Numbered from the stretch's first letter, positions 1,207 to 55,418 are shown. The stretch: 64,000 nt of DNA from Candidatus Latescibacterota bacterium (GCA_965197905.1 CBDAOB010000005.1:864001-928000), one strand, 5' to 3'. Numbers and translations are program-made. Notes: generated by a model from the sequence alone, not told the origin.

Positions 1207-1335
1207 TTTTGGCGTCGAGCCCCGGCCGTACGGCATTGCAGTCGCCGTCGGGCGGCCCCGGGCCGCGCGCCAAGCCAATCCGGATTTCGTGAAGTACTGA
1301 TTCTAGCATCACTTATCCCTTCAAAGGAACTGCCC

Positions 1336-4300: not shown

Positions 4301-4759
4301 TCCCAGAGCAGCCGCACAGCGCACTTCGGGTTGGGGGAACGCGACCAGATCGATTCCCTGGTGGTGCACTGGCCCAGCGGCCAGGTAGATAGCTACCTGG
4401 ACTTTGCGGCCAACACCACCCGGCAGGTGGTCGAAGGCCAGCGCCCCACAGCTGTGGAGGAGACGTCTGCGCCCGTGCCGCACCTGTTCGCCCTGGAGCA
4501 GAATCATCCCAATCCGTTCAACGCCTCGACCCTGATCGGGTTTAGCATCGCACAACCTGGCCGGGTGCGTCTGGTGCTCTACAATGCCCTGGGGCAGCAG
4601 ATCCGCGTCCTGATCGACCAGGACCTGGCGGCCGGGAGACGTCAGGTGGTGTGGGATGGCCGGGATGACCAGGGGCGGTCAGTGGCCAGCGGAGCCTATT
4701 ATTATCGCCTGGGGAGCGGCGGTGAGGAGAAGGTGCGCTCCATGGTGCTGCTGAGGTGA
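1336..4759 (+). pseudogene. CRTAC1-like protein (FG-GAP/VCBS repeats, two ASPIC/UnbV domains, CARDB-like linker, FlgD-Ig/T9SS-like C-terminus); split by a frameshift near 3347-3360, possibly a sequencing error
   Basis: ORFs 1336-3372 and 3290-4759 continue the same DYDxDGDLDLYV repeats; HFGLG ASPIC motifs in both halves; signal peptide; NPFN C-terminal domain; removing one base joins them into ~1140 aa. Confidence 0.8.
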
Positions 4760-4802
4760 GGTGGAGGATGGCGTAGGGGGACAGCTATGTCGACCCAGTT
4801 AT

Positions 4803-5651
4803 TTATCGCTTGATGAAAAAACCTGCGGAATAGACCGGCGCCTGCAGCGCATTCCTGGCCCGCGCGGAGTTGGTCGCGCTCAGTGAAACGCCGGCACCAT
4901 TGCCCAGGTCGTAGATCAGTTCCGGGCCGTAGGTGACGAAGCTCTGGTCGTTGGCGTATAACCCACCCATGCCTCCGCCAACTGCGTCGTCCCCATTCTC
5001 CAGCGACTCGAGGCCGCGCACGTGGAGTATGGCCGTGAAACCGACGCTAAAGGTGTAGCCGCATTCCACTGCATAGAGGAACTCGTCCGAAAAACCGTTG
5101 ATGCGGTTGTTGAATCCAATAGAGACATTCAGGTAGGCAGGTTTCGGATAGAAGGAATGTCCCGCCTGCAGGGCCAGTTGCTGATTGGCTTCGCCGTCGC
5201 CGGTCAGTAAACCGTTCGCCTGGGTGTCATCCCCCAAGGGCAGGCCTAGAACGAGGTCGGCGCCGAGCGTCGTCGCTCCCAGTTGTCGCAGGCGGTAGCG
5301 CAGACCGATCTGTGCGTCCCCGATTCCAGTGACATCGTCCCCTTTGAAGTAGACAAAACCGCTGGGGCGGCCGACTTGCTTGTTCAGGGTGATGCGTTTG
5401 AAAAATGGCAGATACCCGATGACGGTCAGGTCGGCTCTCAGCCCGTACTCGCCGTACAGGCTCGAAGTGTAGTCCGCCAGCGTCGGAATAGTAATCTTGC
5501 TGCCATTCACCTCGCGAAAGTTTTTCCCGCGCACCAGCTGCGTGTCGATCTTGAAGAAGCCGCTCCCTTGGGGTTGAGTCCAGGCCCCGGCGCCGGCATC
5601 GCCGGCACGGCCAAGTACTACGACGGCCAGCACAATTGCAAAGCGCTTCAA
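4803..5651 (-). CDS. Putative outer-membrane beta-barrel protein
   Basis: TTG start after AGAGGAG RBS; signal peptide ending AGA-WTQ; amphipathic beta strands, GIGDAQIGLRY motif, aromatic residues near the C-terminus. Confidence 0.6.
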   Translation of the reverse strand: MKRFAIVLAVVVLGRAGDAGAGAWTQPQGSGFFKIDTQLVRGKNFREVNGSKITIPTLADYTSSLYGEYGLRADLTVIGYLPFFKRITLNKQVGRPSGFVYFKGDDVTGIGDAQIGLRYRLRQLGATTLGADLVLGLPLGDDTQANGLLTGDGEANQQLALQAGHSFYPKPAYLNVSIGFNNRINGFSDEFLYAVECGYTFSVGFTAILHVRGLESLENGDDAVGGGMGGLYANDQSFVTYGPELIYDLGNGAGVSLSATNSARARNALQAPVYSAGFFIKR

Positions 5652-5692: not shown

Positions 5693-6609
5693 TCACTGGA
5701 GTTCAGCAAAGCCGAAGGTGACATTGAACGGAACGCAGTGGATGATAACCCAATCATACGTAGTCATCTCCACATCGGCCGGAAGCGGGTAGCTCTGGGC
5801 GCCGGAAAAACTCTGCAGCTGACCGATTTTGAGGCTGGTGGGTCCAACCATGGCTGCGGTGGAGAGAAATACCTCCAGTGCAGGTCCTTTGCTCACCAGA
5901 AAGTCGTCGCCCAGAACCAGCTCCAGTACCCCCGAATCCCCCGTCTGGACAACGGCCCTCCCCTCGCACACATAACTGGAGCCGGGACGTGGCACGAACA
6001 TGCCCGCACGCTCACCTCCCGGTACCGTTACGACAATCGCGTTGCTGGTGACGCCCTCGGTTTCGGCGGTAATCGTCGTTCGTCCAGGCGAGGTGGCTGA
6101 TACCCGACCGGCATCGTCCACTGTGGCTACGCCCTCGTTCGAGCTGCGCCATTGATAGGACGTTTCTCCCAGCACCTCGCCACGCGCATTCTTATTCTCC
6201 GCGGCGAGTTGAAAAGTTCCGCCTTGCTGTATCTGGACCGCGGACGGCGATAATCGCACAACCGCCACTTGATCGCTGTCGTCAACCACGTTCACCAGAG
6301 CCGGATCGCTAACCACGTCCTCGATGCTGGCGGAGACGGTCACTTGCCCCGAGACCAGGCCGCGTACAGTACCCCGCTCGTCCACGGTAGCGATCTCCGC
6401 ATCCGATACGGACCAGCGGATGGAGGCATCGGCAAGGGGTCGTCGAAGTAGGTCGCTTCAAACCTCCGGCTTTCGCCGACCTGCACGGCCGCCATATCCG
6501 GAATCACGAGAATGCGGGGATCGACCGTCATGGGCGGATCGGCGATATGATCCGTACCCGTACAACCGTGAACCAAACCGGCGATGCCGATGCAAAACCA
6601 TTTCTTCAT
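5693..6609 (-). pseudogene. Lipoprotein with Ig-like (Big_2) repeats and C-terminal DM13 domain; frameshift near 6436-6440
   Basis: Lipobox-like LVHGC in ORF 6340-6609; the second frame resumes ADASIRWSVSDAEIATVD; WRSSNEGVATVD repeat; DM13-like GPALEVFLS...IHCVPFNVTFG. Confidence 0.7.
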
Positions 6610-9299
6610 CGCGCTGCCTTCCAGTTGAAAATTCGTTTCAAATAGCGACTGCTCGCGATGGTTTTGTCGATTTCTCCATGCATTTGAGGTGGAAAGTTCA
6701 AGGGGCCAAACCTCGTTCCTGAGTAGGATGAGTAGCTCGCAAAACTGTCGTCTCGAATGATACTTTCCAGAATATATCTATACATATTGATATTGGAGAG
6801 CGCCTGCAATGGTTGTCCATCAGGAAAGCATTGAGGGCACCACTCTCTAACTGCCTTGAAATTGAAGATGTCTGGGATTTGGGACCTAAAAAAGAGAATT
6901 CTACTGTACTCGCTGATTGGATAGTCGTCCGTCAATGCCGGACTCTTTCGAGTGATTCTCGACAGAGTTTCAGCGTCTGACAAATACATACCGACAACGT
7001 CTGTGAGGTTGCCTACAGAGATTCTTTTCAAATCCATGCTTATCGCTTGGCTCTTATTTGCATTTTGAGTAAAAGTGTACGGATCCAGAATGTTTTCAGC
7101 ATCCTTTCTACCCATTAGTATCAACTCTCCAACATCCCCCCAGAATAGGTTTCCATTGGGAAAGACCTCCATAAACGACCGAATCATCGATAAGACCACC
7201 TCTTTGGGTTGTTGGCGAATAGGTAGCCACTGGGTAAGGAAACCTCCTTTCTTTAGTTTCTTTTTCGAAAGTTGATAAAACTCTTTTGAATAAAGGGAAG
7301 CTACACCTGCAAAGCCTATCGGGGGTGGCTCAAGGGTGACAAGGTCGTAGGTGACGCCCCTGTCCATGCGAAGGTGTTGGCGACCATCGTTAACAAAAAC
7401 TCGAACACGCGGATCACGGAGAATGTCTTGGTTCCACTGCCTAAAAAATTTAGCGTGCTCCAATACGTGCTTAGATAAATCAACCAGCTCGAGGTTTTTT
7501 ACACTTTCATACAAAGAGGCTGCGTGCACTGTGTTTCCAACTCCGAAGCATATGACCAGAACATCTTCTGGCTTCTCTAACTGAAGCAAGGAAAGATGAA
7601 CGAAGGATCTCATGTACCTTTGCGATTCCAATGATGTTGAGGACATGGCATGGCCATTGGTAAATAGGTAGCGTCCCTCGGCTCTTATTGGAATGTCAAC
7701 GATTGCGATGGATTCGAGAATTCCTTCGCTTGTCGTCACAAGGTGAGGTGGTTCTAGCATACCCTTGACAAAGTTCTTATTGCGAAAACTCTTAACAAGC
7801 AAGTAGTCCTTATCCATCTCAAGCCAGCGAACAAGGCATGAGATTAAGGCAACTAAGATCACCACGTGTACCAATCGCAATGCAGTTTGTTTTTTACGTA
7901 GCAAAAATTCCCTATTCATTGGGAAGAGTAACAGCATATTTACAAAGGTTAAGCAGACCATGAAAAAGAGAGTCCACTTAGTGCCAAGCGATGGTATGAA
8001 TAGAAAACCGGTGAGCAGTGACCCACAAAGGGCACCTAGGGTATTCCATAGGTAGAGGCTTCCAGATCTCTTTCCGACCTCTCGAGTCCTGTCTTGGATG
8101 AGCGCATTTGCTAAGGGAAAAGAAAATCCCATAACGAAGGCTGGAATGCCAACTAACTTTAGAATCGGTATTAGGATCAGTGCAAATTCATAGAGCGGTT
8201 GAATGAGAGCAGGGAGTGCAAAGAATGTGTCTTCGTGGACTTTTGTGATTGGGTAGAAGTCGAAGAATAAGAACCCGCCCATTACAAAGAATGCAAAGAC
8301 CACCTGAGAATAGAAAAAAAGTAGCTCAGGACGTTTCAGTCGTTTAGTCAGGATGCCACTGGCTACAGAGCCAAACCAGATACCGACGAGAATAACCAAC
8401 AGTAGGAGCGAAAGGACAGAGCGATACTGTCCTAGTGAACTAATCAAAAATCGAAACCACAAGACTTCCATACCAAGGCCAACGAAGCCGACACAAAACA
8501 ATATCGATGACACGATCACTAGGCTAGGGGAGGGAGTAGATTTAGACTTCGAAGGACGTTGGGACTTACTTTTCAACTGAGGGCTTGGGTGATCGGCCTG
8601 AACAATGAGAGTCTCCTCATTGTAAGCGCTATCGCCAAGCTTTTTGAGCCTTGCCGAAGCTATTCCAAGAGCCCCTAGACCTGCCAGAAGATTAAAAGCA
8701 ACAGCGACCATCTGAGTGCTGAAGATCCCAGCCTTGGGGATCAAGACAAAATCAGCAAGAAAACAGCCAAGGGCCGCGCCAGCGGTATTGATCCCATAGA
8801 GCCAACCAACCTTAGGGGCTGTCTCGCGTAAGTCACTATACAATAGATACCGGATGAGAAGAGTAAGGGTGGCTCCCATTGTGAAAGTTGGTGGAAATAC
8901 AAGGGCCGTTGCTACAACGTAGCGCAGTATCACAGATCCCCACGAGAGTTCGTACCAATTGTTGCTGGTGAGGGTATAGGAAGAAATTAGGGCCGACCAC
9001 TCTTCCCCCCGGATCAGTAGCACTGCGATTAGAAGGCCAAATGCGGCGATCAAAAACTCAGCGTAGGCATAGACTTTGATACAGAAATCTCTGTCTTTTC
9101 TGTAAACTTTGTCGATCCATCGTCCGGCAAAATAGCCCCCCAGACCCAATCCGCACATGAATACGGCGACCACTAGGGAAGTGGAATGGATAGTGTTTCC
9201 AAAGAGAAGGCCAAACTGACGAACCCAGACAATTTGGTAAAGAAGCCCACTGATACCTGAAAGAAAAAAGACCAAATAAACGTTGAAAACCCGAGCCAT
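6606..9299 (-). CDS. Fused MFS-like membrane domain / spermidine synthase-like SAM-binding protein
   Basis: FFLSGISGLLYQIVWVR N-terminus, ~13 hydrophobic segments, then VLVICFGVG, ELVDLS, NDGR, YDLVTLEPPP, GGFLTQW; markedly lower GC than flanks. Confidence 0.85.
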   Translation of the reverse strand: MARVFNVYLVFFLSGISGLLYQIVWVRQFGLLFGNTIHSTSLVVAVFMCGLGLGGYFAGRWIDKVYRKDRDFCIKVYAYAEFLIAAFGLLIAVLLIRGEEWSALISSYTLTSNNWYELSWGSVILRYVVATALVFPPTFTMGATLTLLIRYLLYSDLRETAPKVGWLYGINTAGAALGCFLADFVLIPKAGIFSTQMVAVAFNLLAGLGALGIASARLKKLGDSAYNEETLIVQADHPSPQLKSKSQRPSKSKSTPSPSLVIVSSILFCVGFVGLGMEVLWFRFLISSLGQYRSVLSLLLLVILVGIWFGSVASGILTKRLKRPELLFFYSQVVFAFFVMGGFLFFDFYPITKVHEDTFFALPALIQPLYEFALILIPILKLVGIPAFVMGFSFPLANALIQDRTREVGKRSGSLYLWNTLGALCGSLLTGFLFIPSLGTKWTLFFMVCLTFVNMLLLFPMNREFLLRKKQTALRLVHVVILVALISCLVRWLEMDKDYLLVKSFRNKNFVKGMLEPPHLVTTSEGILESIAIVDIPIRAEGRYLFTNGHAMSSTSLESQRYMRSFVHLSLLQLEKPEDVLVICFGVGNTVHAASLYESVKNLELVDLSKHVLEHAKFFRQWNQDILRDPRVRVFVNDGRQHLRMDRGVTYDLVTLEPPPIGFAGVASLYSKEFYQLSKKKLKKGGFLTQWLPIRQQPKEVVLSMIRSFMEVFPNGNLFWGDVGELILMGRKDAENILDPYTFTQNANKSQAISMDLKRISVGNLTDVVGMYLSDAETLSRITRKSPALTDDYPISEYSRILFFRSQIPDIFNFKAVREWCPQCFPDGQPLQALSNINMYRYILESIIRDDSFASYSSYSGTRFGPLNFPPQMHGEIDKTIASSRYLKRIFNWKAAR

Positions 9300-39586: not shown

Positions 39587-42500
39587 TCAAGCATTCGGAG
39601 GCAGTCCAACAAATTGACGACTGTAGGCATCCAGCAGGGGATCGGACTCGCGTTTGTCGGCGGCGCGTGCGAAGACGACTCCGGGGCAGTTCGCCCGCCG
39701 TGCTCGCGGCAGCAGACCGTAGCCGGAAGGCAGCGCTCGTTCACCCGTTCGCTCCAACTCAAACATCTCTCCCATCACCTCGGCAATGCCCCGTCGAGCT
39801 CCCACGACTCGGGCAAACGCCTCGTGCGGTTCTAACCCCTGCCGCCAACCGTGTCGCGTGGGCACGGTCCTGCCATCGATGTCGGTCGTCGCGATATTCG
39901 GGCCGATCAGCTGGAGGAGCTGCATCGTGTTACCCCTCGCTCCGCTCTTGCAAAGCAGGTTCAGCGGCCCGAATTCGTCGTCGTCGATCTCGTCGCATCT
40001 CGCCAACCAATGCAACGCTTCATCGGTGTAGGACTCCCATTGGTCCCGGTCGTCCTCCTCCGGTGGCGAGGGAAGATCCAGGCTAGTGCCGACGAATGGA
40101 TTCATCGACAGACCAAGGGTTTTGGCTTCTTCGAACCCGCGACGCATCAGGCGTTCGGAGGTCGTAAGGGCCTCCTCCACACCTTTGCGCTCGACCATCT
40201 CGCGCAGCGCATCGACAAGCGGCCGGCGTGTGATGAAGGCGGCACCCTTCTCGATTTTCATGCCGGGGAGTTTTTCGATCTCAGCATGGCCTTCCGGTGT
40301 CATACTCAAGCTGGCCAGTCCCACAACGGCATCCATTCGCGGATCCAGGGAGCTGATCAATTCGGGATTCCGCTCAACCACGGCGCGGATAGATAAGCGC
40401 TGCTCCGCCTCGAGCTGCCCAGCTTTGGTGATCGGGAGAAAAACCGCCATCTGGTCGCCGTCGAAATCCGCGTTCATCAACTCGCAAGCAAGCGGAGGTA
40501 GGCGCAGCGCCCGTCCCGGACACCGAACCGGTCGGAAAGCGAGAAAAGAGGAAATAGGGGAAAGCACCCATCCTGTGTAGACAGTCACCCACGAACCCGC
40601 CAGGAGTTGGTCGAGGGATTCTTCCAGCTCGGGCGTCGGCCTGGTGGGTGCGGTCGAGGGTACGGTTTCGCGAGCGAGCAGCGGGCCGAACAGGGTCCAG
40701 CAGATCTCTTCGGGAAGGCCGATCTGATCGTAGTGCAGTTCAGGCCCAGGGGTGGTAACAGTTCGTCCACTGAACAAGACACTGGCGTTGGGAAGCAAAT
40801 CCTTGGGTTTGACAACCGCATTCAAATAGGCGCCGAGCATCTCTTCGAGGTGTGTCTGCGCACTTTCTATCAAGGCCTTTGGGGCGCTGCTGTCGACCAT
40901 CTGTTGAAGGCGAGAATTGGCCGACTCCAGCTCGGCGTATTCCGGCAGCTCCTCAAGTTGCCCGACCCTCTTCAAACGGTGTTGGCGGAACCATGGGTGA
41001 GGAACGGGAAGCGCAAACTGCAAGCAGGGATTCGGTGGCGACTGGAAGGTCAACCGCAGACATTCCTGTTCGAGGGCAACCTGGATTCCCGCGATCTCCA
41101 GGCGCTGGACGAGTCTTGTAAACGACGGTGCAGGCGGACCTGCCTGTCGCAGCTCTCCCTTGCCGACCTTTTCCGCCAGCGTCTCGGATCCGTCGCGCTC
41201 CGCGGCGCAGGTGTTGAAGAGCTCAGACGCGGTCTCGAGCGCGCCGATGTTCGCCAGCATACCATATTCGTTGGCGCCAACCGTTTGCGGCCGGCCATCT
41301 CCAACCGAGGCATGTATCTTGCCGCGCACATCGTGGATCGTGCGGCCCCAGTAGACCCATCCCGCGGTGCTTGGGCGTTGTAGTCTTTTACCGTTAACGG
41401 TAAGGGTTTCCATGCCGTCGCCGGATATTCCCGCTGTCGTCATTCGCTTGCGGAGCTCCTTCTCGCTCGGCGCCTGAAAAGGAGGCACGATCGCCGGTTT
41501 GCTTTCGGTCTTCGCGATACGACCCATCAACGCTTCCCGTACGACCCCAAAATTCATGCGGGATACCAGGCCGCAGACGCTGTAGATCAGGTCGATGGGG
41601 ACCCCGTTCAGGTGCGGCATCTCTACGTCCGGGAGGATGCACGAGACCACACCCTTCGATCCGTGCCGGTTGGAAATCTTGTCACCTACTTCGATTGGGT
41701 GAGGATCCTGGAAACGGGAAGCCGCCGATTCGCTGAGTACAATCGCATCTTCAAAGGTGTAGCCATCCCAGGAGATAAATGCGGTGAGCAGGTTCCGACC
41801 GCACCAGAATTCCGGGACATCAGGCTCCGCGCCGGTTTGGACCAGAGCCGGTTCTGGTTGCGCCTGGGGGGTCCACTGGCGCATCATATTGGCCCCCATC
41901 AGGAGCCGATTCCCGTCACTGTGTTCGAGAAACGGAATCGCGGAGGCGGACAAACCCAGGTTTGCCGCCGGCGTGTTCTCCACTATTTCCAGGCGACTGT
42001 CCCGAATCTCTGCCCCCTGTGCGATGGTGAGGATGCGTCCGACGTTGGGCCCTTCGGGGGTTTCGAAGGGGCAGGTGCGGCCGAAATGACCGGGGGTGAA
42101 GACCTTCTTGCGCTCAGGAATCGACACCCGGCGCAGATGTACTTGCCGAGATAACCAGTTTATTTCGACCAGTTCCTCACCAAGCTGCTGGAGGAATTCG
42201 CGAACCCAGTCGGTGATCGGTACCCATGCGGCAGCAAGGGTTTCCTCCCATTGCATCTCTTGCGGTGCGTCTCCCAGGCGCTGCTCAACAAAGTGGAACA
42301 ACTGCTCGCCCACACAGCGAATCTCAGCTCGATCGAGATCGTCCTCGGTGGCTTTCGGAGATACAACAAGCCACCGACCGTCCATCTCGAAAACCCCCTC
42401 GTCATTTGGCTCAGGCACATCGTCATGTTCCACCACGACCTCGCCGTCCTTTCCGCGCAGAACCACCTTGACCCGGCACCTATGATGTCCGGCTGCTTCG

Positions 42501-42610
42501 GTATGATATCCCACAAGTGGAATCCGCTCGCTCAGTAATTGCGGCAGCAGTTCCTGGATGAACCGATCCCACGAGGTTTTGTGCCAGGGTGCCCCGTAGC
42601 TCAACTTCAT
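39587..42610 (-). CDS. Miniaturised single-chain RNA polymerase beta-beta' (RpoB-RpoC) fusion-like protein, ~1007 aa
   Basis: Colinear RpoB motifs (HFGRTCPFETPEGPNVG, IPFLEHSDGNRLLMGANMMRQ, WDGYTFEDAIVLSE, GDKISNRHGSKGVVS, SRMNFG) then RpoC motifs (PVPHPWF, SGRTVTTPGP, NADFDGDQMAV at 40454-40474, SGARG, GARRGIAE); GGAGG RBS; ATG overlaps the sigma stop codon. Confidence 0.9.
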   Translation of the reverse strand: MKLSYGAPWHKTSWDRFIQELLPQLLSERIPLVGYHTEAAGHHRCRVKVVLRGKDGEVVVEHDDVPEPNDEGVFEMDGRWLVVSPKATEDDLDRAEIRCVGEQLFHFVEQRLGDAPQEMQWEETLAAAWVPITDWVREFLQQLGEELVEINWLSRQVHLRRVSIPERKKVFTPGHFGRTCPFETPEGPNVGRILTIAQGAEIRDSRLEIVENTPAANLGLSASAIPFLEHSDGNRLLMGANMMRQWTPQAQPEPALVQTGAEPDVPEFWCGRNLLTAFISWDGYTFEDAIVLSESAASRFQDPHPIEVGDKISNRHGSKGVVSCILPDVEMPHLNGVPIDLIYSVCGLVSRMNFGVVREALMGRIAKTESKPAIVPPFQAPSEKELRKRMTTAGISGDGMETLTVNGKRLQRPSTAGWVYWGRTIHDVRGKIHASVGDGRPQTVGANEYGMLANIGALETASELFNTCAAERDGSETLAEKVGKGELRQAGPPAPSFTRLVQRLEIAGIQVALEQECLRLTFQSPPNPCLQFALPVPHPWFRQHRLKRVGQLEELPEYAELESANSRLQQMVDSSAPKALIESAQTHLEEMLGAYLNAVVKPKDLLPNASVLFSGRTVTTPGPELHYDQIGLPEEICWTLFGPLLARETVPSTAPTRPTPELEESLDQLLAGSWVTVYTGWVLSPISSFLAFRPVRCPGRALRLPPLACELMNADFDGDQMAVFLPITKAGQLEAEQRLSIRAVVERNPELISSLDPRMDAVVGLASLSMTPEGHAEIEKLPGMKIEKGAAFITRRPLVDALREMVERKGVEEALTTSERLMRRGFEEAKTLGLSMNPFVGTSLDLPSPPEEDDRDQWESYTDEALHWLARCDEIDDDEFGPLNLLCKSGARGNTMQLLQLIGPNIATTDIDGRTVPTRHGWRQGLEPHEAFARVVGARRGIAEVMGEMFELERTGERALPSGYGLLPRARRANCPGVVFARAADKRESDPLLDAYSRQFVGLPPNA

Positions 42611-43203
42611 TCGAATTCCTCCCAGTCTATGCCGAGGGCTTTCCACCTTCTGCCGATCTCCCTGCGGCCGTAATGTAAGCGCGATTTTACGGTTCCCGGA
42701 GGTATGCCCAGTTCCTGGGCGACCTCCTTCACCTCCATCTGGGCGTCGTAGATCAAACGCATCACCTCTCGTTTGTCTTCCGGCAGGTCGTCCACGAGAT
42801 CCTGCAATCTATCGCGTACCTCCTTTCGTTCGAGCAGCGTGTCCGCACCAAGCGCAGCCGCATCGACCAACCACACCGGGACGTCGCTTTCATCCTCTTC
42901 AAGATCGAGCCCGGAAGCTTCCAGCGGCTGCTGGCGGCGGCGACGCACGGTGCGGATATGGTTGAGGGCCAGATTGGTGGCTATGCGGTAGAGCCACGAC
43001 AGCAACGATGAACCGCTCCACTGCGCGGAGTGCGACCAGACCCGTAGAAACAACTCCTGGAGCAGGTCTTCGGCCGCACCTCTGTCGCGCACCATCCGTT
43101 GCAGATGGCGAACTAGATCGGTGGAGTATCGTTGATGGAGCTCTTCGAACGCCTTTTCGTCCCGGCTTCGAATGCGCACCATGAGGTCATGGTCAGTGTC
43201 CAA
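42607..43203 (-). CDS. ECF-type sigma-70 family RNA polymerase sigma factor
   Basis: Region 2 AEDLLQELFLRVW...SWLYRIATNLALNHIR; region 4 LPEDKREV...EVAQELGIPPGTVKSRLHYGR; TTG start after AGGGAGG. Confidence 0.93.
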   Translation of the reverse strand: MDTDHDLMVRIRSRDEKAFEELHQRYSTDLVRHLQRMVRDRGAAEDLLQELFLRVWSHSAQWSGSSLLSWLYRIATNLALNHIRTVRRRRQQPLEASGLDLEEDESDVPVWLVDAAALGADTLLERKEVRDRLQDLVDDLPEDKREVMRLIYDAQMEVKEVAQELGIPPGTVKSRLHYGRREIGRRWKALGIDWEEFE

Positions 43204-43220
43204 ACAACCTCCCTACTGCT

Positions 43221-43249
43221 CATGACACCGAATGAAACGGAGGGGTTCA
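43221..43249 (-). promoter_or_regulatory. Candidate ECF (autoregulatory) promoter
   Basis: TGAACC-N17-GTCATG on the minus strand just upstream of the sigma RBS. Confidence 0.55.
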
Positions 43250-43274
43250 AAGAAAAATATAGTATGGTGGGTTG

Positions 43275-43320
43275 TTGACTCTCTGCCTGGCTGCAATATA
43301 TTGACTACTATAGGTAGTTA
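43275..43320 (+). promoter_or_regulatory. Sigma70-type promoter with adjacent palindromic operator for the TrmB-ilvE unit
   Basis: TTGACT-16 bp-TATATT followed by TGACTAC-TATAG-GTAGTTA inverted repeat. Confidence 0.5.
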
Positions 43321-43349
43321 ATAATCAGGCAAAGGAACTGCTCATTCAG

Positions 43350-44136
43350 TTGGGCTTGAGCGAATACGAAGCCGGAGCCTATCTCTCCCTCCTGAGCTGC
43401 CAACCAGCAACGGCATACGAACTTGCCAAGGTATCCGGCATCCCGAGCTCGAAAATCTATGAAACAGCCAACCGCCTGGTAGACAAGAAGCTTATCGAGC
43501 CGGTTACCGCCGATAGTGGACGCGGGCAACGCTACATCGCCGTGGGGGCCGAGGACTTTATCTCCATCAAACGCGAGGAGGTTGCGCGCCAGACAAACGT
43601 GCTTGAGCCTCTCCTGAAGGCCGCCAGCAACGGTATGGAAGCGGACTTTATCTGGCAACTGGACGGGGCCGACGGGCTCGAGGATAAAACGCGCCCAATT
43701 GATTCGGGAGGCAGAAGGAACCGTGTTGGCCTCCCTGTGGCAAGCCGAGTTCGATGCCTATGACGACGATCTGCAAGCCGCCGAGCGGTGGGGTGTCGGT
43801 CTCGCCCTGGTGCACTACGGCGCGCCCGCCAGGCGCTTGGGGGCAACCTTTCACCACCCCGTGGAAGAGACGATCCGGCAGGAACGGGGCGGGCGCGGCC
43901 TTACCCTCGTTGTCGATCAACGCTGCGTGGTCATCGCCACTTACTTCGACGACGGTCGCGTGGAAGGGGCCTGGAGCCGAAATCGGGCGTTTGTCTTTGT
44001 TGCCGAAGACTGCGTCCGGCACGACGTCTATATCACCAAGGTTACGGCAACCATGGATGACGATCTCAAGCGCAACTTCGGGGCGGACTACGAAAAACTG
44101 CGTGATGTGTTTCAAGCGGTGGAGCGGGAGTCGTGA
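43350..44136 (+). pseudogene. TrmB family transcriptional regulator, frameshifted near 43694-43696
   Basis: LGLSEYEAGAYLSLL...AKVSGIPSSKIYE wHTH in ORF 43350-43763; effector domain (LTLVVD...HDVYI) in ORF 43699-44136; removing one C joins them. Confidence 0.8.
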
Positions 44137-49633: not shown

Positions 49634-52594
49634 CTACATCAGCTGATGGAAGTCGGGGAACCCGATAAGAGCGCGGACAAAGAAGGAAAGGGTGTCGAAG
49701 TCGGCAACCTGTCGGGCCGGTGCCTCAAACTTTCTGGCGTCTCGGTGCAGGCCGACAATCGTATAGAGATCGTAGCCGAAGTAGCGCGACGAGTTCGTAA
49801 TGGTAGCCATGAGCGTGCGGCGCTCAAAGTCGTCCAGCTCGCGGGCGTTGTTCCTGAATCGATAGGGTAGCGGACCCCAACCCTGGATGCCAAGTCGTGC
49901 CGTGGTTCTTCGCATTATAGGTAACGTCAGCTGGAGTATTGGCATCGTCTCGTACTCCATGCGCATCACCCGGTCCTGCTCCTGATCAACGAATCTGATC
50001 ATCTGGAACTTGAACTTGGGCTGGATGCTGAAGCGGCCGATCATCCAGGTGTAGTCGATGCGGTTCACCATCGTCCAGTGATCCAAACGGCGCTTGCGCT
50101 CTATGCGGCCAGCCGACTGGCGTCCTCCCTGCTGCCAGTTCAACCGCAGCCGGATTTTCTGGACCAGGTTCAGCGTCGACCAGGGTCGCAGCCAACTCTC
50201 CAGGTAGGACTCGTTAACATAACTATTTTCGTACCAAAGTGGATCCTGTCGCTGGTGGTTGAGGAACGACCGATTACCGTGGTAGAAATGGTGCACGAAG
50301 TACTGGTAGGTGTCCGTGAACTGGCGGTCCTCCGTGAAGACGTTGTACTCGTCCGGAATGGAGTCTTCAACCCTTCGAAAGTGGTTCTCCGCAAAGACTC
50401 GCCGCAAGCGCTCGTTGCCGCTTCGTTCGTAGGTGAGCAGCGCATAGGTGGAACGGTTGTTGCGCCCTCCGGCAATCTCGTCGATGTCGTAGCGGCCCAC
50501 GGCGAACATCAGATTTCGCGTCAGGTTGGTCTGCCCGAAGAGATGGTAACCCCGTTGATCGGGATCATACGGATGGTCGGGAGCCAGGTCGTCTTCCCTT
50601 TGATCCGGCTCATCGTTGTTGTTGCGGTCGAGCCCGTAGGTGTAGTCGTTCGGCTCGACCTCGTACATCAGGAACGGCTCCAGGTAATCCGGCAATGCGT
50701 CGCCGTTTCGATTGACGTCCGGAAACCCGTCGTTGTTCTGATCCTGGGCCAGGTAGACCCCGTCGGCGTCGACGCCGATGTCGTTGCGGTAGATGCTCCC
50801 AGGGGTGTAGCCTGAGCGCTTGTCGGGAAACTGGTCGCCGTCCTCGTTGTCCTGCACCAGATCCCAGTACATGGTCTCGTTCGTCAGCGCCTTTATCACG
50901 CTGCGTCTGTCTGACACAACGCCCTTCTCCTCCCAGATGAAGGTGCGCATGGTGGTGGTGAAATCAGGGTTCATGGTGAAGTACTCTCCCCCGAAACTCC
51001 AATTCTTATACCACCTGGTGGCGTTTACGAAGTAGGCCGAACCGTTGTTGGTGAAGCGCGGACTCTCATTGAAGGCAGGCCGATTCTCGATCTCGGCTGG
51101 GAAACGCCGATACACTCGGGAACGAGCGTACTCACCGTTGATCTCAGCGCCCACGAACTGCAGGTTCAAGTCCGCGCTGTAGGTGAAAATGGAGGTGTCT
51201 TCACCCATCTTGAATCGAACCCGCTTTAAGTTGCTGCCATCCTGCACGTTGCCCCGGGCCCGCAACACCGTCCGATAGAACTCGCTCTTGAAGCGACCCC
51301 CGTACCCCTTGCTCCTTGGACTATCTTCATAGAGCGACGCGACGTCGATCCTGTAGTCGTTGGCGACCGTCGCCTCCACCTCCATCGATACCATCAGGGT
51401 CTCACCAGTCATATCGAACAGGAATGCGAGCTGCCAGTCGCCGTCGGCGTGAAGGATTTCAGTGGGCGATTCCATCGTGAAATGGGCAAGGAGGCCCCGG
51501 AGATTGGCCTCTTTGCTCACGTCGATCCCCGCCTCGTGATCCATCCGGTAGAGGTAGTCGGTATATTTGACGATATCGTTGCGACCTACGAAGTAGGTCC
51601 CGTAGAATTCCCCCCTGGTCTTGAAGTACTGACCTGAGATAAAACCACCAGTGGTTGTTGTTCGCCCGACCTGACTGGATATACCGGAGCGGTTGCGGAT
51701 TACCTGAGGCACGATGTCGGGCCGGCGCTCGCCGTTTACCACCAACACCACGTCCCGCACCATGGCGCCCCCTTTCCCGTCGCGGGGCGAGTCGTCAGAG
51801 AACCGCACCACCACCCAATCGGCCAGGGGCGTCCGCGGACGTAGCTTGCCCTTGATGCTGTTTCCCGGCTCCGTGCTCATATAGGTGTGCACATTGGCGA
51901 GATTCAACCCCAACGTAGCAGCGCCGAGCTCCGCCTGCGCCCGCCCTCCTAGTAGAAGGGAGGATTCGCGCGCGAACATCTTGTTTTCGATATGGTACTG
52001 AGACATGGGGTTGTAGTCCCATCCGCGCGGCGAGTACGGGCGTTCGACGCGACTGGCCAGGGTGGTGAGTTTCAAGCGCGGGGTCCACAGGTCTATCCGC
52101 AGCCCATTGTAGTCTACCTGGGAAAGGGTCAACGGCGTAAAGCGAGCAGTGAGTCCATGGCCGACCATGGCGCCGTACCCCCAATTCCCGTATCCGTCCC
52201 GGGCGATCGCGGTGTAGTTGAACGCCTCAATCCAGGTACCCTCATCGATTTGGATGCTGCTGCCCCACTCCTGACTCGGCTGGCGGGTCTCGGTCCAATT
52301 GAAGAGGTCGAAGCCATGGATAAGGTGATTGCCGAATCCATCATATACCGCCTTGGGATGGTAATTGTCCACAAATTGCGTGCCTTGGGGCAGGACGTGG
52401 TGCAGGTAGTTTGAGTAGCGGCCGAGTGCGAAATTCCTGTAACCGGGCCGTTCGTAGCGCAGCACAGGCCGTGAAGGGAGGACTTGAGGAACGTTGGCGG
52501 TAACCTGCTCAGCCTCGAGTTGAAGCGGTCCAGCGAGGTTGGTCAGCATTCCCATCTGAACAACCAGGGTCAACACACGTTGCGCGTTGTGCAT
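49634..52594 (-). CDS. Large hypothetical secreted/outer-membrane protein with Asp-rich Ca-binding-like repeats (paralog of 52680-55418)
   Basis: ~986 aa; hydrophobic N-terminus; DxNxDG motifs; amphipathic beta strands at the C-terminus; start uncertain. Confidence 0.7.
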   Translation of the reverse strand: MHNAQRVLTLVVQMGMLTNLAGPLQLEAEQVTANVPQVLPSRPVLRYERPGYRNFALGRYSNYLHHVLPQGTQFVDNYHPKAVYDGFGNHLIHGFDLFNWTETRQPSQEWGSSIQIDEGTWIEAFNYTAIARDGYGNWGYGAMVGHGLTARFTPLTLSQVDYNGLRIDLWTPRLKLTTLASRVERPYSPRGWDYNPMSQYHIENKMFARESSLLLGGRAQAELGAATLGLNLANVHTYMSTEPGNSIKGKLRPRTPLADWVVVRFSDDSPRDGKGGAMVRDVVLVVNGERRPDIVPQVIRNRSGISSQVGRTTTTGGFISGQYFKTRGEFYGTYFVGRNDIVKYTDYLYRMDHEAGIDVSKEANLRGLLAHFTMESPTEILHADGDWQLAFLFDMTGETLMVSMEVEATVANDYRIDVASLYEDSPRSKGYGGRFKSEFYRTVLRARGNVQDGSNLKRVRFKMGEDTSIFTYSADLNLQFVGAEINGEYARSRVYRRFPAEIENRPAFNESPRFTNNGSAYFVNATRWYKNWSFGGEYFTMNPDFTTTMRTFIWEEKGVVSDRRSVIKALTNETMYWDLVQDNEDGDQFPDKRSGYTPGSIYRNDIGVDADGVYLAQDQNNDGFPDVNRNGDALPDYLEPFLMYEVEPNDYTYGLDRNNNDEPDQREDDLAPDHPYDPDQRGYHLFGQTNLTRNLMFAVGRYDIDEIAGGRNNRSTYALLTYERSGNERLRRVFAENHFRRVEDSIPDEYNVFTEDRQFTDTYQYFVHHFYHGNRSFLNHQRQDPLWYENSYVNESYLESWLRPWSTLNLVQKIRLRLNWQQGGRQSAGRIERKRRLDHWTMVNRIDYTWMIGRFSIQPKFKFQMIRFVDQEQDRVMRMEYETMPILQLTLPIMRRTTARLGIQGWGPLPYRFRNNARELDDFERRTLMATITNSSRYFGYDLYTIVGLHRDARKFEAPARQVADFDTLSFFVRALIGFPDFHQLM

Positions 52595-52679
52595 ACTGTT
52601 CACGATTCGGGTTTCAATGGCATGGCAATACCCAAATAATAGGAAGCTTTTGGAAAGGAACCAAACACGAGAGGGACCG

Positions 52680-55418
52680 CTAGATGAGCCGGCCGTATTC
52701 GGTGAACCCGACCAGAGCGCGCACAAAAAACGCTACGGTGTCGAAATTCTCGGATATCCGAGCCGGAGAATCATAGGTGAGACGGTCTTTTTCGAGACCG
52801 ACGATGGTGATCAGGTCATAACCGAAGTAGGTCGAACGCATGGTCACCGATGAGATGGCGGTACGGCGATCGAAGCTCTCCAGCTTGCGGGCGCGGTCGT
52901 CGAAGCGGTAGGGCAGGGGTCCCCATCCCTGCAGGCCGATGCGAAAAAAGGTCCGCGGCATCAGCCGAAAGCTTGCCTGCACGATCGGCAACGTATCGTA
53001 TTCCGAACGAATCAGCTGGTCGGAGCGCTGGTCTACCGCTCGCAGCGCCAGGAATTTGAATTTCGGCTGCACGGCGAGCCGTCCGCGGCGCCAAGAGTAA
53101 TCGACGGCGTGAACCGAGGTCCAGTAATCCAGCCGGCCTTCTCGCGAGCGAAATCCGCCCGGCAGCAGCCCGGGCTGCTGCCAGTTCAGCCGCAGCCGCA
53201 GCTTCTGCACCAGATTTAGGCCGCGCAACGGTTGCAGTCGCGCTTCCAGGTACCCCTCGTTTACGAAGCTGTCCCGGTAGGACAAGGGATCCTTGCGACT
53301 CTTCGGGCGAAAACCTCTGGAACCGTAGGTCATCGCCGTGTGCACCGAGTATCTCCGATATATCGAGCTGAAGCGGCGTTCCTCGGCGATGACGTTGTAG
53401 CGATCCGGGATGTCATCCTTCACTCGCCTGAGATTGTTCTCGAAGAAGAGGGTTTGCAGGCGATCAACGCCCTCGCGCCGATAAGTGAGCAGCGCGTAAT
53501 CTGTTGCGCTTCTTCCGGCGCCCGCCATTTCCTCTGCCTGGTAATGCCCGATGGCCAACGACCAGTGGCGACTGAGATCCAGCTGACCAAATAGATGGTA
53601 CCCTCGTTCATCCCAGTTGTATGGATAATCCGGCTCCCAGTCGTCTTCGCGAAAATCAGGCTCGTCGTTGTTGTTGCGATCGAGACCGTAGGAAAACTCG
53701 CTCGGCTCCACATCGAACATGAGGAACGGTTCGACATAGTCGGGTAGCGGGTCCCCGTCCCTGTTGGTGTCGGGATAACCGTCGCGGTCCACATCCTGAC
53801 CCAGATAGACACCGTCGTTATCGGCAAAGTCCGCTTCGCTGTCTCCGTCGTCGTTGTCCTCTACCAGGCTGTTGAAGTTAGGGTGGATCTTGAAGAGCTC
53901 GGCTCCGAAACGCCCGTGCCCGAACCAGCGGATCAGGTTGACAAAGTATGCATCTCCCGGCCTGGTGAACCGCGGAGAGTCGTCGAGGGTCTTTTCTCGG
54001 CCGACGTGAGCGGGGTAACGGAAATTCTGTGACGAGCGGGCGTACTCTGCGTGCATCTCAAGGCCCAGCATGACCAGACTCATCTCGCCGCTGTAATAGA
54101 AATTGCCGGTAAACTCGCCGATCTGAAAAGACACCCGCCTGAAATTGGAGCCGTCCTGGACATCGCCCCAGGCGCGACGGACGCGATAGTAGGACCGGGC
54201 TTGGTAGCGCTGCACATAGTTGGGATTGCGATCGTTGATCGTTTTTATGGTGGCCCAGCTGAATTCGTAGTCATTCGCTGCCAGGGCTTCCACCGCAACG
54301 GAGATCACGCTCGGTTCCGCAGACAGGTCGAAGATGTAGACCACCTGCTCGTCGCGATCGAACTGCATGGCTTCGACGCTTGAAACCAGGGGAAAGCTCT
54401 TCAGCAACCCGGGCAGGTTGGTGCGATCGCTTACATCCTCACCACGCTCGTGGGCAATGCGGTAGAGATAGTCAGCATGCAGGGGGTTGTGAGCTCCGCC
54501 GATATAGCGCGTCGGTCGGAAGCGTCCGGTTTCCGCCGAAACGTAGCCGATTTGGGTTGCCTCGGCGGCGCGGTGGCGAATGACATACGGAACCAGGTCC
54601 GGCCGCTTCTCGCCATTGACAATGAGCAGCAGATCCTGAACCATTGGTCCGGAGTGACCATCCTCGGGGGAATCGTCCCTGACCCGCACGAAAATCCAAT
54701 CGGCTATTTCGATCTCCCTGTCCAATCGGCCTTTGAGGCTGTTTCCGGGGAGGGTACTGATATATCTGTGGTAGTTCCCCCAGTTGAGTGCGAGCTTCAG
54801 CCCGCCTATCTCGGTCTGCACTCGATTGGCCAGCCATAAGCGCGTACCTCCCCTCCAGTGTCCCCACCGTCGCATATATCCAGTGAATTGCGCCTTTGGG
54901 GTCAGCAAATCGACTCTCAGGCCGGATGTGTTTGCCCGCGAGATGGTGAGCGGGGAAAGGTGAAGCCGCCCCGTCGATCCAGCCAATGCCCGGTAACCCC
55001 ATTTGCCGTAGCCGTCATTGCCAACGATGACACCACTGTCCCGCTGGATGTAGTTGCTGCCGCAAACGGCACCGCGACGGTCTTCGCAGCTCAATCCCGG
55101 CTGTCGCAGCTCCTGCCAATTGAGAAACTCGAAGCCGGTGATCTGCTCGTTGCCTAGGGGACCGTAGAACCCCCGCGGATGGTAGTTGTCGCGGAGGGCC
55201 AGTGCGGTCGGAATGGTGTGGTTGGCATAGTTGACGAAGTGGTTGATGGCGTAGTTCTGGTAGCTGATGGCGTCCCGCCGCATCATCAGCCGCTGTGGGG
55301 TGATCTCCTCCCTTTTTAAGGGTCGCTGTGACGCTGCTCCTGCCGTTTGAACCCACAGCGCGGTCAAGGCCATACACAGTAGGAACGGTTTGGAACGCAA
55401 GACCGGTCGAGGGCGCAT
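52680..55418 (-). CDS. Large hypothetical secreted/outer-membrane protein (paralog of 49634-52594)
   Basis: 912 aa; signal peptide; shares DDSPxDG, EPFLMxxVEP, YGLDRNNNDEPD, QGWGPLPYRF, FFVRALxGF blocks. Confidence 0.75.
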   Translation of the reverse strand: MRPRPVLRSKPFLLCMALTALWVQTAGAASQRPLKREEITPQRLMMRRDAISYQNYAINHFVNYANHTIPTALALRDNYHPRGFYGPLGNEQITGFEFLNWQELRQPGLSCEDRRGAVCGSNYIQRDSGVIVGNDGYGKWGYRALAGSTGRLHLSPLTISRANTSGLRVDLLTPKAQFTGYMRRWGHWRGGTRLWLANRVQTEIGGLKLALNWGNYHRYISTLPGNSLKGRLDREIEIADWIFVRVRDDSPEDGHSGPMVQDLLLIVNGEKRPDLVPYVIRHRAAEATQIGYVSAETGRFRPTRYIGGAHNPLHADYLYRIAHERGEDVSDRTNLPGLLKSFPLVSSVEAMQFDRDEQVVYIFDLSAEPSVISVAVEALAANDYEFSWATIKTINDRNPNYVQRYQARSYYRVRRAWGDVQDGSNFRRVSFQIGEFTGNFYYSGEMSLVMLGLEMHAEYARSSQNFRYPAHVGREKTLDDSPRFTRPGDAYFVNLIRWFGHGRFGAELFKIHPNFNSLVEDNDDGDSEADFADNDGVYLGQDVDRDGYPDTNRDGDPLPDYVEPFLMFDVEPSEFSYGLDRNNNDEPDFREDDWEPDYPYNWDERGYHLFGQLDLSRHWSLAIGHYQAEEMAGAGRSATDYALLTYRREGVDRLQTLFFENNLRRVKDDIPDRYNVIAEERRFSSIYRRYSVHTAMTYGSRGFRPKSRKDPLSYRDSFVNEGYLEARLQPLRGLNLVQKLRLRLNWQQPGLLPGGFRSREGRLDYWTSVHAVDYSWRRGRLAVQPKFKFLALRAVDQRSDQLIRSEYDTLPIVQASFRLMPRTFFRIGLQGWGPLPYRFDDRARKLESFDRRTAISSVTMRSTYFGYDLITIVGLEKDRLTYDSPARISENFDTVAFFVRALVGFTEYGRLI

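Follow-up and report, generated by a model that had tools for sequence, protein, structure and literature searches.

A reduced single-chain RNA polymerase of bacterial descent encoded with a dedicated ECF sigma factor and promoter

We analysed a window of 64,000 nucleotides (nt) from a Candidatus Latescibacterota bacterium (GCA_965197905.1, CBDAOB010000005.1:864001-928000; positions are counted from its first letter) and found in it, at 39587..42610, a gene encoding a strongly reduced, single-chain RNA polymerase (RNAP), hereafter the mini-RNAP. Our conservative conclusion is that this is a real, selected, chromosomal two-barrel polymerase of bacterial descent, obligately paired with a dedicated sigma factor of the extracytoplasmic function (ECF) type and with a conserved ECF-type promoter of its own. 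The reading that we favour, with a probability of about 0.55, goes one step further: promoter, ECF sigma and a second, sigma-dependent, single-chain minimal RNAP would make up a two-gene module. It is on account of the dedicated sigma and promoter that we speak of a transcription module instead of an orphan enzyme.

A single chain made of reduced beta and beta' halves

The gene lies on the minus strand. The longest open reading frame (ORF) of this strand spans 39587..42646 (1019 amino acids (aa) from a GTG), and its most likely start is the ATG at 42610, giving 1007 aa, because GGAGGA stands before it, because it shares an ATGA with the stop of the upstream gene, and because it yields a product that is 100% identical to a 1007-aa database entry. 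A sequence-only reading of this DNA had described an uninterrupted ORF of about 1007 aa; its coordinates stood, whereas the strand had to be corrected to minus, as the plus-strand translation of 39587-42610 contains many stops and no open frame. In the minus-strand translation all the motifs listed in that reading were found in the order in which it gave them, and the linker that it had placed at 41020-41075 falls at residues ~512-530, the passage from the beta-like to the beta'-like half. The main features of the gene are the following.

39587..42610, minus strand: coding sequence of the mini-RNAP, with reduced beta and beta' fused in a single chain (ORF, Pfam and AlphaFold2 model)
41051..42610, minus strand: beta-like half, residues 1-520, with an N-terminal remnant, fork/Rpb2_3, double-psi barrel and C-terminal clamp part (structural alignment and BLASTP)
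39590..41050, minus strand: beta'-like half, residues 521-1007, with clamp helices, double-psi barrel, reduced funnel, bridge helix and short tail (structural alignment and BLASTP)
41651..41686, minus strand: GDKISNRHGSKG, residues 309-320, with the beta-barrel lysines K311 and K319 (family alignment)
40814..40945, minus strand: clamp helices, residues 556-599, an antiparallel coiled coil (model helices H556-573 and H578-599)
40454..40474, minus strand: NADFDGD, residues 713-719, the Mg-binding Asp triad of the beta' barrel (D715, D717 and D719)
39743..39829, minus strand: bridge helix, residues 928-956 (29-residue helix in the model; residues 856-944 can be aligned to the host's own beta')

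Three Pfam families were detected above their gathering scores, in line with the check that had been proposed: RNA_pol_Rpb2_6 (120.3 bits for a cut-off of 23.4, best stretch at residues 316-446), RNA_pol_Rpb1_2 (57.2 bits for a cut-off of 25.3, residues 700-749) and RNA_pol_Rpb2_3 (35.1 bits, residues 161-214). The genome, a metagenome-type assembly of 6.69 Mb in five contigs (91% complete), also encodes canonical, adjacent rpoB and rpoC on the same contig, ~1.3 Mb away (G000:C5:2203087-2210875; 1835 and 1766 bits). The gene thus lies outside the rplL-rpoBC locus and a normal rpoBC exists elsewhere, as expected from the sequence-only reading. Its estimate of about one third of the usual size was also close, since the 1007 aa amount to 38% of the 1262 + 1362 aa of the host subunits.

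When aligned by BLASTP with the host's own beta and beta', the mini-RNAP showed 29-31% identity in long blocks, and 57% in the 28-residue block 267-294. Residues 142-265 correspond to beta 455-653 with the external-1 domain gapped out, residues 267-294 to beta 742-769, and residues 306-518 to beta 1028-1258. In the other half, residues 558-735 correspond to beta' 265-476 and residues 856-944 to beta' 667-764, the start of Rpb1_5 according to the Pfam domains of the host protein. The NCBIfam models of rpoB (166.2 bits, cut-off 801.15) and rpoC (94.5 bits, cut-off 963.5) were matched in pieces, and their archaeal counterparts scored lower (117 vs 166 bits for rpoB, 37.8 vs 94.5 for rpoC). The best scores of the bacterial models, and the almost complete superposition of the two halves on beta and beta' (see below), uphold the proposed derivation from cellular rpoB and rpoC. 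The mini-RNAP is plainly a reduction of bacterial-type beta/beta'.

Absent or reduced regions were called by comparison with the Pfam domains of the host beta and beta', and the names of the lost elements (lobes, flap, lid, rudder, trigger loop, jaw) are those that we take to apply from established knowledge. Rpb2_1 and Rpb2_2 (lobes, protrusion) are gone apart from a remnant, and Rpb2_45 is also absent or reduced. The flap is not present: 11 residues (295-305) stand for ~258 residues of the host beta (770-1027) and join FEDAIV..SE to GDK. Rpb1_1 (N-terminal zinc, lid, clamp core) has largely disappeared, together with ~25 residues behind the clamp helices (rudder) and the jaw. There is no trigger loop, as 63 residues follow the aligned start of the bridge helix, vs ~600 in the host beta'; this 63-residue tail superposes on the extreme C-terminal part of beta'. 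The bridge helix of the cellular RNAP core is kept (helix 928-956 of the model), and so are the clamp helices, which correspond to beta' 265-310 of the host. They retain the pattern N-RL-R...AP...L...DAL, of which the N, R, P and L positions are invariant or almost so in the family alignment. In cellular RNAP the clamp helices are the main docking site of sigma region 2.

The AlphaFold2 model of the mini-RNAP, built on a family alignment of 39 rows, has a predicted local distance difference test (pLDDT) score of 92.5 and a predicted template modelling (pTM) score of 0.90. VIA-align placed residues 2-519 of the model on the beta chain 8i23_C (Z 30.1, root-mean-square deviation (rmsd) 2.4 A, 513 aligned residues, 30% identity) and, using the whole model, residues 512-1007 on the beta' chain 6edt_D (Z 17.0, rmsd 3.5 A, 487 aligned). 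The beta' half folded alone (pLDDT 84.6) aligned to beta' chains over 449-473 of 487 residues, with Z ~29 and ~26% identity. Solved single-chain enzymes also match the model, with Z ranging from 6.3 to 11.9: QDE-1 (7y7p_A; Z 11.9, 378 aligned) spans residues 78-1000 as a single rigid body, P23-45 gp96 (Z 10.4) covers residues 227-953, P74 gp62 (8f5m_A; Z 9.5) covers residues 150-995, and the virion RNAP (vRNAP) of the crAss-like phage phi14:2 likewise superposes over both halves. Since these enzymes superpose as one rigid body over both halves, the barrels of the model are placed as in real enzymes. They face each other in the prediction, which is consistent with the shared active site on which the sequence-only reading depended.

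Conservation of the catalytic residues was counted in the same 39-row alignment. D715, D717 and D719 are each retained in 38 of the 39 members and G718 in all of them; the single member without the triad (P0194) has GFGGL in place of DFDGD. In the beta barrel, K311 is present in 36 members, K319 in 37, and G309, R315 and G317 in all 39, and the acidic D288 (of the FED pair) is retained in 37. The intact Asp triad and beta lysines noticed in the window are therefore conserved across the family. The window reads AFRPV ahead of the triad, where Pro is found in 36/39 members. The protein has the hallmarks of the two-barrel superfamily, i.e., a DxDGD beta' barrel and a beta barrel with two lysines and the ED acidic pair. 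The ratio of nonsynonymous to synonymous substitution rates (dN/dS) against a 92%-identical relative is 0.138 (dS 0.31), with 0.057-0.183 in each of seven segments, and not the value near 1 that the earlier reading had set against its own claim. Insensitivity to rifamycin, as read from the fork-region residues of the window, was a candidate that we dropped; the family consensus differs at those positions.

The surroundings of the gene resemble the rest of the chromosome. The GC content of the region (0.588-0.604) is within that of most of the window (0.57-0.63), and no phage, insertion sequence (IS), integrase or defence family was found among the neighbours, both in agreement with the earlier description. 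PADLOC gave no match for the mini-RNAP or its neighbours (the adjacent sigma gave weak helix-turn-helix noise), and Rfam at gathering thresholds gave none in the whole window. A contig from a public run covers 40445-43400 with two differences, across both the beta/beta' join and the junction of the sigma and RNAP genes. The public runs listed for the 3.7-kb stretch of the two genes included no RNA run. In all four runs the summed contig depth at 40443-40474 rises from <15 to 68-694 and the contigs are interrupted, because the 32-nt word encoding NADFDGDQMAV also occurs in rpoC of many other organisms sampled. This jump is an assembly hazard, not a feature.

The dedicated sigma factor, its promoter and the family

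Directly upstream of the mini-RNAP gene, and on the same strand, lies a gene for a sigma factor that the sequence-only reading had not noticed. It is preceded by a predicted promoter of the corresponding type.

42607..43203, minus strand: ECF-type sigma factor of 198 aa with a TTG start (Pfam Sigma70_r2 and Sigma70_r4_2; TIGR02937)
42607..42610, minus strand: ATGA overlap of the sigma stop with the RNAP start (read from the sequence)
43224..43249, minus strand: ECF-type promoter, with TGAAC (43249-43245), N16 and GTGTC (43228-43224), followed by GGGAGG and the TTG start (sequence motif)

The sigma consists of regions 2 and 4 only (Sigma70_r2, 55.4 bits; Sigma70_r4_2, 47.9 bits). It scores 105.6 bits with TIGR02937 of NCBIfam (cut-off 42.9) and reaches no specific equivalog. 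We fetched 80 related loci, of which four lacked upstream DNA, and scored the remaining 76 for the presence of the sigma. An orthologous sigma (42-56% identical) ends within 300 nt of the RNAP start in 74 of the 76, across eight named phyla; in L045 it lies 1 kb upstream behind an inserted gene, and L035 has none. The gap between sigma stop and RNAP start is at most 10 nt in 29/69 loci, and the sigma orthologs diverge in step with the mini-RNAP. Among 168 genomes of the window's phylum, 65 encode the RNAP, 63 a member of the sigma clade and 62 both, i.e., 62 of the 66 genomes with either gene have both. The locus is cut by a contig end in the sole genome with a sigma and no RNAP. One genome (G076) carries two sigma/RNAP modules. 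A predicted complex of the sigma with residues 215-1007 of the RNAP gave an interface score (ipSAE) of 0.00 in two runs made without controls, which counts neither for nor against a pairing of the two.

ECF operons usually, albeit not always, encode an anti-sigma factor in the slot that is held here by the mini-RNAP. No cognate anti-sigma was found next to the sigma at the locus, where the mini-RNAP is the downstream gene. The main text and one supplementary file of the ECF reclassification paper (PMC7826278) contain no mention of Rpb, rpoB or rpoC.

The promoter is conserved with the two genes. In a k-mer enrichment analysis of 73 upstream regions, TGAAC was found in 70 and GGTGTC in 60. The complete TGAAC-N16-GTGTC motif occurs in 67 of them, with a spacer of exactly 16 in 63. 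It is usually placed 46-65 nt before the N-terminus of the sigma (130 nt in L017 and L020) and is followed by a conserved, AGT(A/G)GAGG-like ribosome-binding stretch. A search of both strands of 1.02 Mb of locus DNA gave 66 exact matches to the motif, without exception on the coding strand ahead of the module, 65 of them directly before it and one, in L085, 3.9 kb ahead of the sigma. AAC-type -35 and GTC-type -10 elements are the motif types of ECF autoregulatory promoters. Judged from its sequence, the order of promoter, sigma and RNAP is that expected of an ECF operon under autoregulation. A search of the minus strand gave no promoter of the sigma-70 type.

A word-indexed database search returned 570 relatives of the mini-RNAP. 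The best 120 of them have 1001-1068 aa and Rpb2_6 plus Rpb1_2, most also Rpb2_3, and the named ones among these 120 are labelled 'hypothetical protein' or carry Pfam-derived labels. In an exhaustive search of 1.84 billion cluster representatives, full-length members reached down to ~32-36% identity; the next relatives, at ~210-220 bits, were far larger fused proteins. Among GTDB contigs with one genome per species, 433 of 450 pattern candidates were confirmed. The best 80 of these 433 are labelled Latescibacterota, Poribacteria, Armatimonadota, Hydrogenedentota, Planctomycetota, Chloroflexota, Gemmatimonadota and Kiritimatiellae. Metagenome-assembled genomes with labels of Ktedonobacteraceae, Dictyobacter, Herpetosiphonaceae and Chthonomonadaceae are among those that hold relatives. 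Homologs with the same architecture, the search for which had been proposed as a check, are thus found in hundreds of genomes. One Latescibacterota record, 92% identical to the mini-RNAP of the window, probably belongs to the window's own lineage.

Within the phylum the gene is present in 19 of 52 high-quality genomes and is patchy by family, ranging from 0/13 to 25/31 genomes. A tree of 72 members has 10 changes of phylum label, for a minimum of 7 and a mean of 36 after shuffling, which indicates mostly vertical descent with losses and some transfer. Neither the 50,697 phage records nor the 72,556 plasmid records included one that covers at least 80% of the query; IMG/VR held no true family member, only distant fused relatives, and PHROGs gave partial matches only, to phage beta/beta'-like families. 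The suggestion that the gene was domesticated from a mobile element finds no support in these phage and plasmid records or in a tree that largely follows the phyla. In the related loci, no neighbour other than the sigma is conserved across phyla and no conserved element was found downstream of the mini-RNAP gene.

Some operons carry an additional gene. The sigma and RNAP genes of some members of the phylum are separated by 1.3-2.4 kb, and in three genomes (G092, G078 and G112) a half-size ATP-binding cassette (ABC) exporter (ABC_membrane plus ABC_tran) is encoded between them. The inserted genes were read from the sequences of the loci.

L205:4633-6426, minus strand: ABC exporter gene inserted in the sigma/mini-RNAP operon
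L207:2833-4593, plus strand: ABC exporter gene inserted in the sigma/mini-RNAP operon
L208: ABC exporter gene inserted in the sigma/mini-RNAP operon

The exporters inserted in two different families of the phylum are 40% identical. The best ABC matches of the window's own genome have 25-40% identity and are located elsewhere. A Chloroflexota locus (L085) has two ABC genes between promoter and sigma (1296-5245, plus strand), and orthologous ABC genes lie ~4 kb upstream in L032 and in L034, the latter apparently frameshifted. In the group of G085, a 381-aa ORF lies between sigma and RNAP (L206:4467-5612, minus strand), with gaps of similar size in G084 and G086. This insert matched no Pfam family, gave weak signals resembling tetratricopeptide repeats, and could be a lineage-specific regulator. 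All four variant loci that were fetched have one promoter, which precedes the sigma. Only a minority of operons show the ABC link, verified in four loci and deduced from gap size in six more genomes. The other genomes of the phylum have no ABC-sized gap, and ABC insertions recur in unrelated arrangements.

Possible functions and rival explanations

In the reading that we favour, the polymerase, pared down to the parts of the active centre (both barrels, fork, bridge helix, clamp helices and clamp base), would not need alpha or omega. The sigma, on the host core enzyme, would fire the TGAAC-N16-GTGTC promoter of the operon, as in ordinary ECF autoregulation, and translational coupling would ensure that sigma and mini-polymerase are made together. 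The mini-polymerase would then bind the sigma through its retained clamp helices, and the pair, of ~135 kDa, would act as a second, promoter-specific, DNA-dependent RNAP. On the sequence evidence, the most economical reading of the sigma is that it serves as the mini-enzyme's own initiation factor, a reading that accounts for co-occurrence, translational coupling and the retention of the clamp helices. The sequence-only reading had offered two options. A streamlined second RNAP accords with the fold, the catalytic conservation, the low dN/dS, the bacterial-type matches and the separate rpoBC; selection on the catalytic residues makes an RNAP mimic the less likely of the two.

Several observations weigh against this two-gene module. 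A position weight matrix of the promoter applied to the 6.69-Mb genome gave 31.7 bits at the operon's own site and at most 12.6 bits elsewhere (training sites scored at least 17.6), and the plain pattern occurs 11 times at N16 vs 7-13 times at other spacers. In five other genomes there were 46 pattern matches vs 24 for a reversed-pattern control, with a mild excess in three of them. We inspected 30 of the 46 sites and found no second convincing one: the three own-operon sites alone have a fitting downstream gene and most others lie inside long ORFs. With no promoter found beyond that of the operon, the mini-RNAP therefore has no visible regulon. Besides, the flap is deleted, so the canonical -35/-10 geometry is not guaranteed on the mini-enzyme. 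Three genomes encode the RNAP without the sigma (one contig fragment, one N-terminally truncated match and the complete genome G148), and the sigma gene is disrupted by internal stops or frame breaks in L049, L050 and L057 though the RNAP is intact. Finally, the Arg ahead of the triad is present in only 21 of the 39 members (His in 12, Lys in 2, others in 4); section 8 of the survey by Ruprich-Robert and Thuriaux (PMC2919709) counts eight residues as invariant in two-barrel enzymes, this Arg being one of them.

Two other explanations of the operon stay in play, because the flap is lost and no regulon is visible. The sigma might be a regulator only, working with the host core, and the mini-polymerase a cargo that acts without sigma, in the manner of YonO, on single-stranded or damaged DNA or on RNA, or in priming or short-RNA synthesis. 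The ECF geometry with its 16-nt spacer fits a host holoenzyme, in which the flap places sigma region 4, and not readily a flapless enzyme; in L035 the promoter stands directly before the RNAP with no sigma between; and QDE-1, a single-chain two-barrel relative, uses RNA and DNA templates according to the abstract of PMC9508822. Yet an ECF sigma devoted to a single cargo gene, without anti-sigma and with so nearly perfect a co-occurrence, would be unusual, as would be the translational coupling and the position in the slot normally held by the binding partner of the sigma. The retention of the clamp helices, while most of beta' was deleted, is best explained by a docking partner. We therefore regard a purely regulatory sigma as a doubtful, if respectable, explanation. 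That slot, usually filled by an anti-sigma, would also suit a protein that titrates its cognate sigma or soaks up an antibiotic or phage inhibitor of RNAP, catalysis being secondary. The ABC exporters in the operons of G092, G078, G112 and L085 would then remove the compound, and one family member does lack the Asp triad. Such a decoy is unlikely, given that 36-38 of 39 members retain the catalytic residues of the two barrels, that dN/dS is uniformly low, active-site segments included, and that the ABC link stands on few loci.

Two further explanations concern the origin of the gene. Other single-chain two-barrel RNAPs are phage- or plasmid-borne, as described in parts of PMC2919709 and PMC5467207, the gene is patchy within the phylum (65/168 genomes), and IMG/VR holds distant fused beta-beta' proteins (21-27% identity). 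A polymerase of a prophage, plasmid or integrative element residing in the chromosome is nevertheless very improbable: the family is absent from the phage, plasmid and IMG/VR records searched, its GC content is host-like, it has no integrase, IS, phage or defence neighbours, its tree follows the phyla, and the neighbours vary by lineage, leaving the sigma and the RNAP alone in common between phyla. An artefact, either an assembly chimera or a decaying pseudogene, might be suspected in a metagenome-type assembly in which the public-run contigs break at the NADFDGD word. This explanation is already refuted by the contig spanning 40445-43400, by the like architecture of the best 120 of 570 relatives, by the dN/dS of 0.14 and by the confident model. 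A misassembled join, listed by the sequence-only reading among the results that would refute its claim, is excluded by the same contig and by the recurrence of the architecture in hundreds of genomes.

As to physiology, the recurrent insertion of ABC exporters suggests a role in the response to stress or antibiotics, and the mini-RNAP might, for instance, stand in as a polymerase while the main enzyme is poisoned. A bolder version of the two-gene module, which we put forward tentatively and at less than even odds, is that of an autonomous system of ~3.7 kb (promoter, sigma and 112-kDa RNAP), present in at least eight phyla, that transcribes itself and provides back-up or resistance under antibiotics or phage factors. 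If so, inserted cargo such as the ABC exporter would be kept transcribed independently of the main RNAP. The enzyme would then be smaller than any sigma-dependent RNA polymerase known so far, and its hosts would break the rule that a bacterium has one RNAP.

Textbooks give bacteria a single RNA polymerase. The same is stated in a part of the ECF literature (PMC7671368). A conserved, chromosomal, sigma-coupled second enzyme would qualify this rule for several large environmental phyla. It would also define experimentally, with deletions already made by evolution, which parts of a 400-kDa machine promoter-specific transcription requires. With one sigma, one polymerase and a 26-bp promoter, it would furnish a compact orthogonal expression system. 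The family has a bearing on the question whether single-chain two-barrel polymerases of small size are relics or reductions, and its ABC-exporter variants are a testable lead to a physiological role.

Two other parts of the window stand out. The stretch 6001-9000 has a GC content of 0.488, vs ~0.59-0.62 elsewhere, and is covered by an 897-aa ORF (6606..9299, minus strand); it may be foreign DNA, given this composition. Two adjacent large ORFs, of 1030 and 912 aa, occupy 49634-55418 on the minus strand. The former has a sub-threshold SlpA_C match only and the latter matches no Pfam family.

Comparison with known systems

Full-text literature searches, with most subscription journals outside their coverage, returned no description of the mini-RNAP family, in agreement with the statement of the sequence-only reading that none was known. 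A 2010 survey of non-canonical two-barrel enzymes (PMC2919709) lists, in its relevant sections, YonO-like and plasmid forms only, and the corresponding part of a 2021 survey of jumbo phages (PMC7824862) lists cellular, killer-plasmid, RNA-dependent RNA polymerase (RdRP)/YonO and transposon forms.

One of the nearest known systems is the bacterial core enzyme with an ECF sigma, e.g., the sigma-H holoenzyme of M. tuberculosis (5zx3, 6kon). The mini-RNAP shares with bacterial core RNAP the catalytic motifs and the bridge and clamp helices, with ~30% identity over 513 residues of beta and ~26% over 450-487 residues of beta'. As in the ECF holoenzyme, its partner sigma is limited to regions 2 and 4, and the promoter is of the ECF type, with 16 nt between its two elements. 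The mini-RNAP differs from the core by being one chain of 1007 aa, vs ~2600 aa in two chains plus alpha2 and omega, by lacking the lobes, flap, zinc/lid/rudder, trigger loop and jaw, and by being encoded with its own sigma. According to a passage of PMC7824862, the beta flap anchors sigma region 4 in cellular holoenzymes.

YonO, of the Bacillus prophage SPbeta, is prophage-borne, whereas the mini-RNAP is chromosomal and sigma-linked; the two are set apart here by description, not by sequence. We know of no sigma partner of YonO. A tblastn search of phage records with the mini-RNAP gave no Bacillus phage match. The two enzymes are alike in being single chains of ~100 kDa that contain both barrels and lack a trigger loop and a flap-type insert (as described for YonO in part of PMC7824862), and the sections of PMC5467207 on its activity present YonO as an efficient, processive DNA-dependent RNAP without a trigger loop. 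The same source gives YonO few catalytic residues in common with multisubunit RNAPs, whereas the mini-RNAP can be aligned to beta/beta' nearly throughout.

K2ORF6p, from the yeast cytoplasmic linear plasmid pGKL2, is likewise a fusion of beta then beta' of ~1000 residues, as compared by description. Its lid, rudder and secondary-channel rim are reported missing in passages of PMC6211774, whose authors stated in 2018 that this fusion was not known in any other RNAP. Unlike the mini-RNAP, it belongs to a eukaryotic virus-like element and needs K2ORF7p, which carries C-terminal beta' regions; it works with a capping enzyme, a helicase and an ATNTGA upstream element, and with no sigma.

The full-length RpoBC fusions (NF007172 and NF011417, which NCBIfam describes as beta/beta' fusion subunits), which we take to be those of Helicobacter and Wolbachia, have the same order in one frame, but they comprise ~2840-2890 residues and are the cell's only RNAP, whereas the mini-RNAP coexists with separate canonical rpoB and rpoC. 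Its scores with the two models are 154.2 bits (cut-off 5372) and 162.2 bits (cut-off 4632), respectively. P23-45 gp96, P74 gp62, the phi14:2 vRNAP and QDE-1 have the same two-barrel single-chain arrangement at an identity of only 9-12%, with other accessory domains, a viral or eukaryotic context, and no sigma.

More distant fused proteins are numerous. The IMG/VR relatives (L095-L174) match residues 159-945 of the query over 3.2-4.5 kb, and the ESM Atlas adds unnamed clusters of proteins of 1164-1787 aa in which Rpb2_6 is fused with Rpb1_2. These viral and Atlas proteins are part of a broad, largely unnamed diversity of single-chain RNAPs. The window's genome itself has a third RNAP-type gene (G000:C3:765313-771066, plus strand; L094:7314-13067), a single 1917-aa ORF in which RNA_pol_L and RNA_pol_A_bac are followed by Rpb2_3/2_6/2_7 and then by Rpb1_2 to Rpb1_5. 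By its domain order this is a predicted single-chain fusion of alpha, beta and beta', which shares 35-45% identity with the canonical subunits and lies next to no sigma gene. Two proteins from other sources, P0266 (2309 aa) and P0270 (1948 aa), have the same order. The enzyme class to which the mini-RNAP belongs is known; what appears to be new is its reduction, its fusion, its chromosomal spread and, above all, its dedicated sigma factor and promoter.

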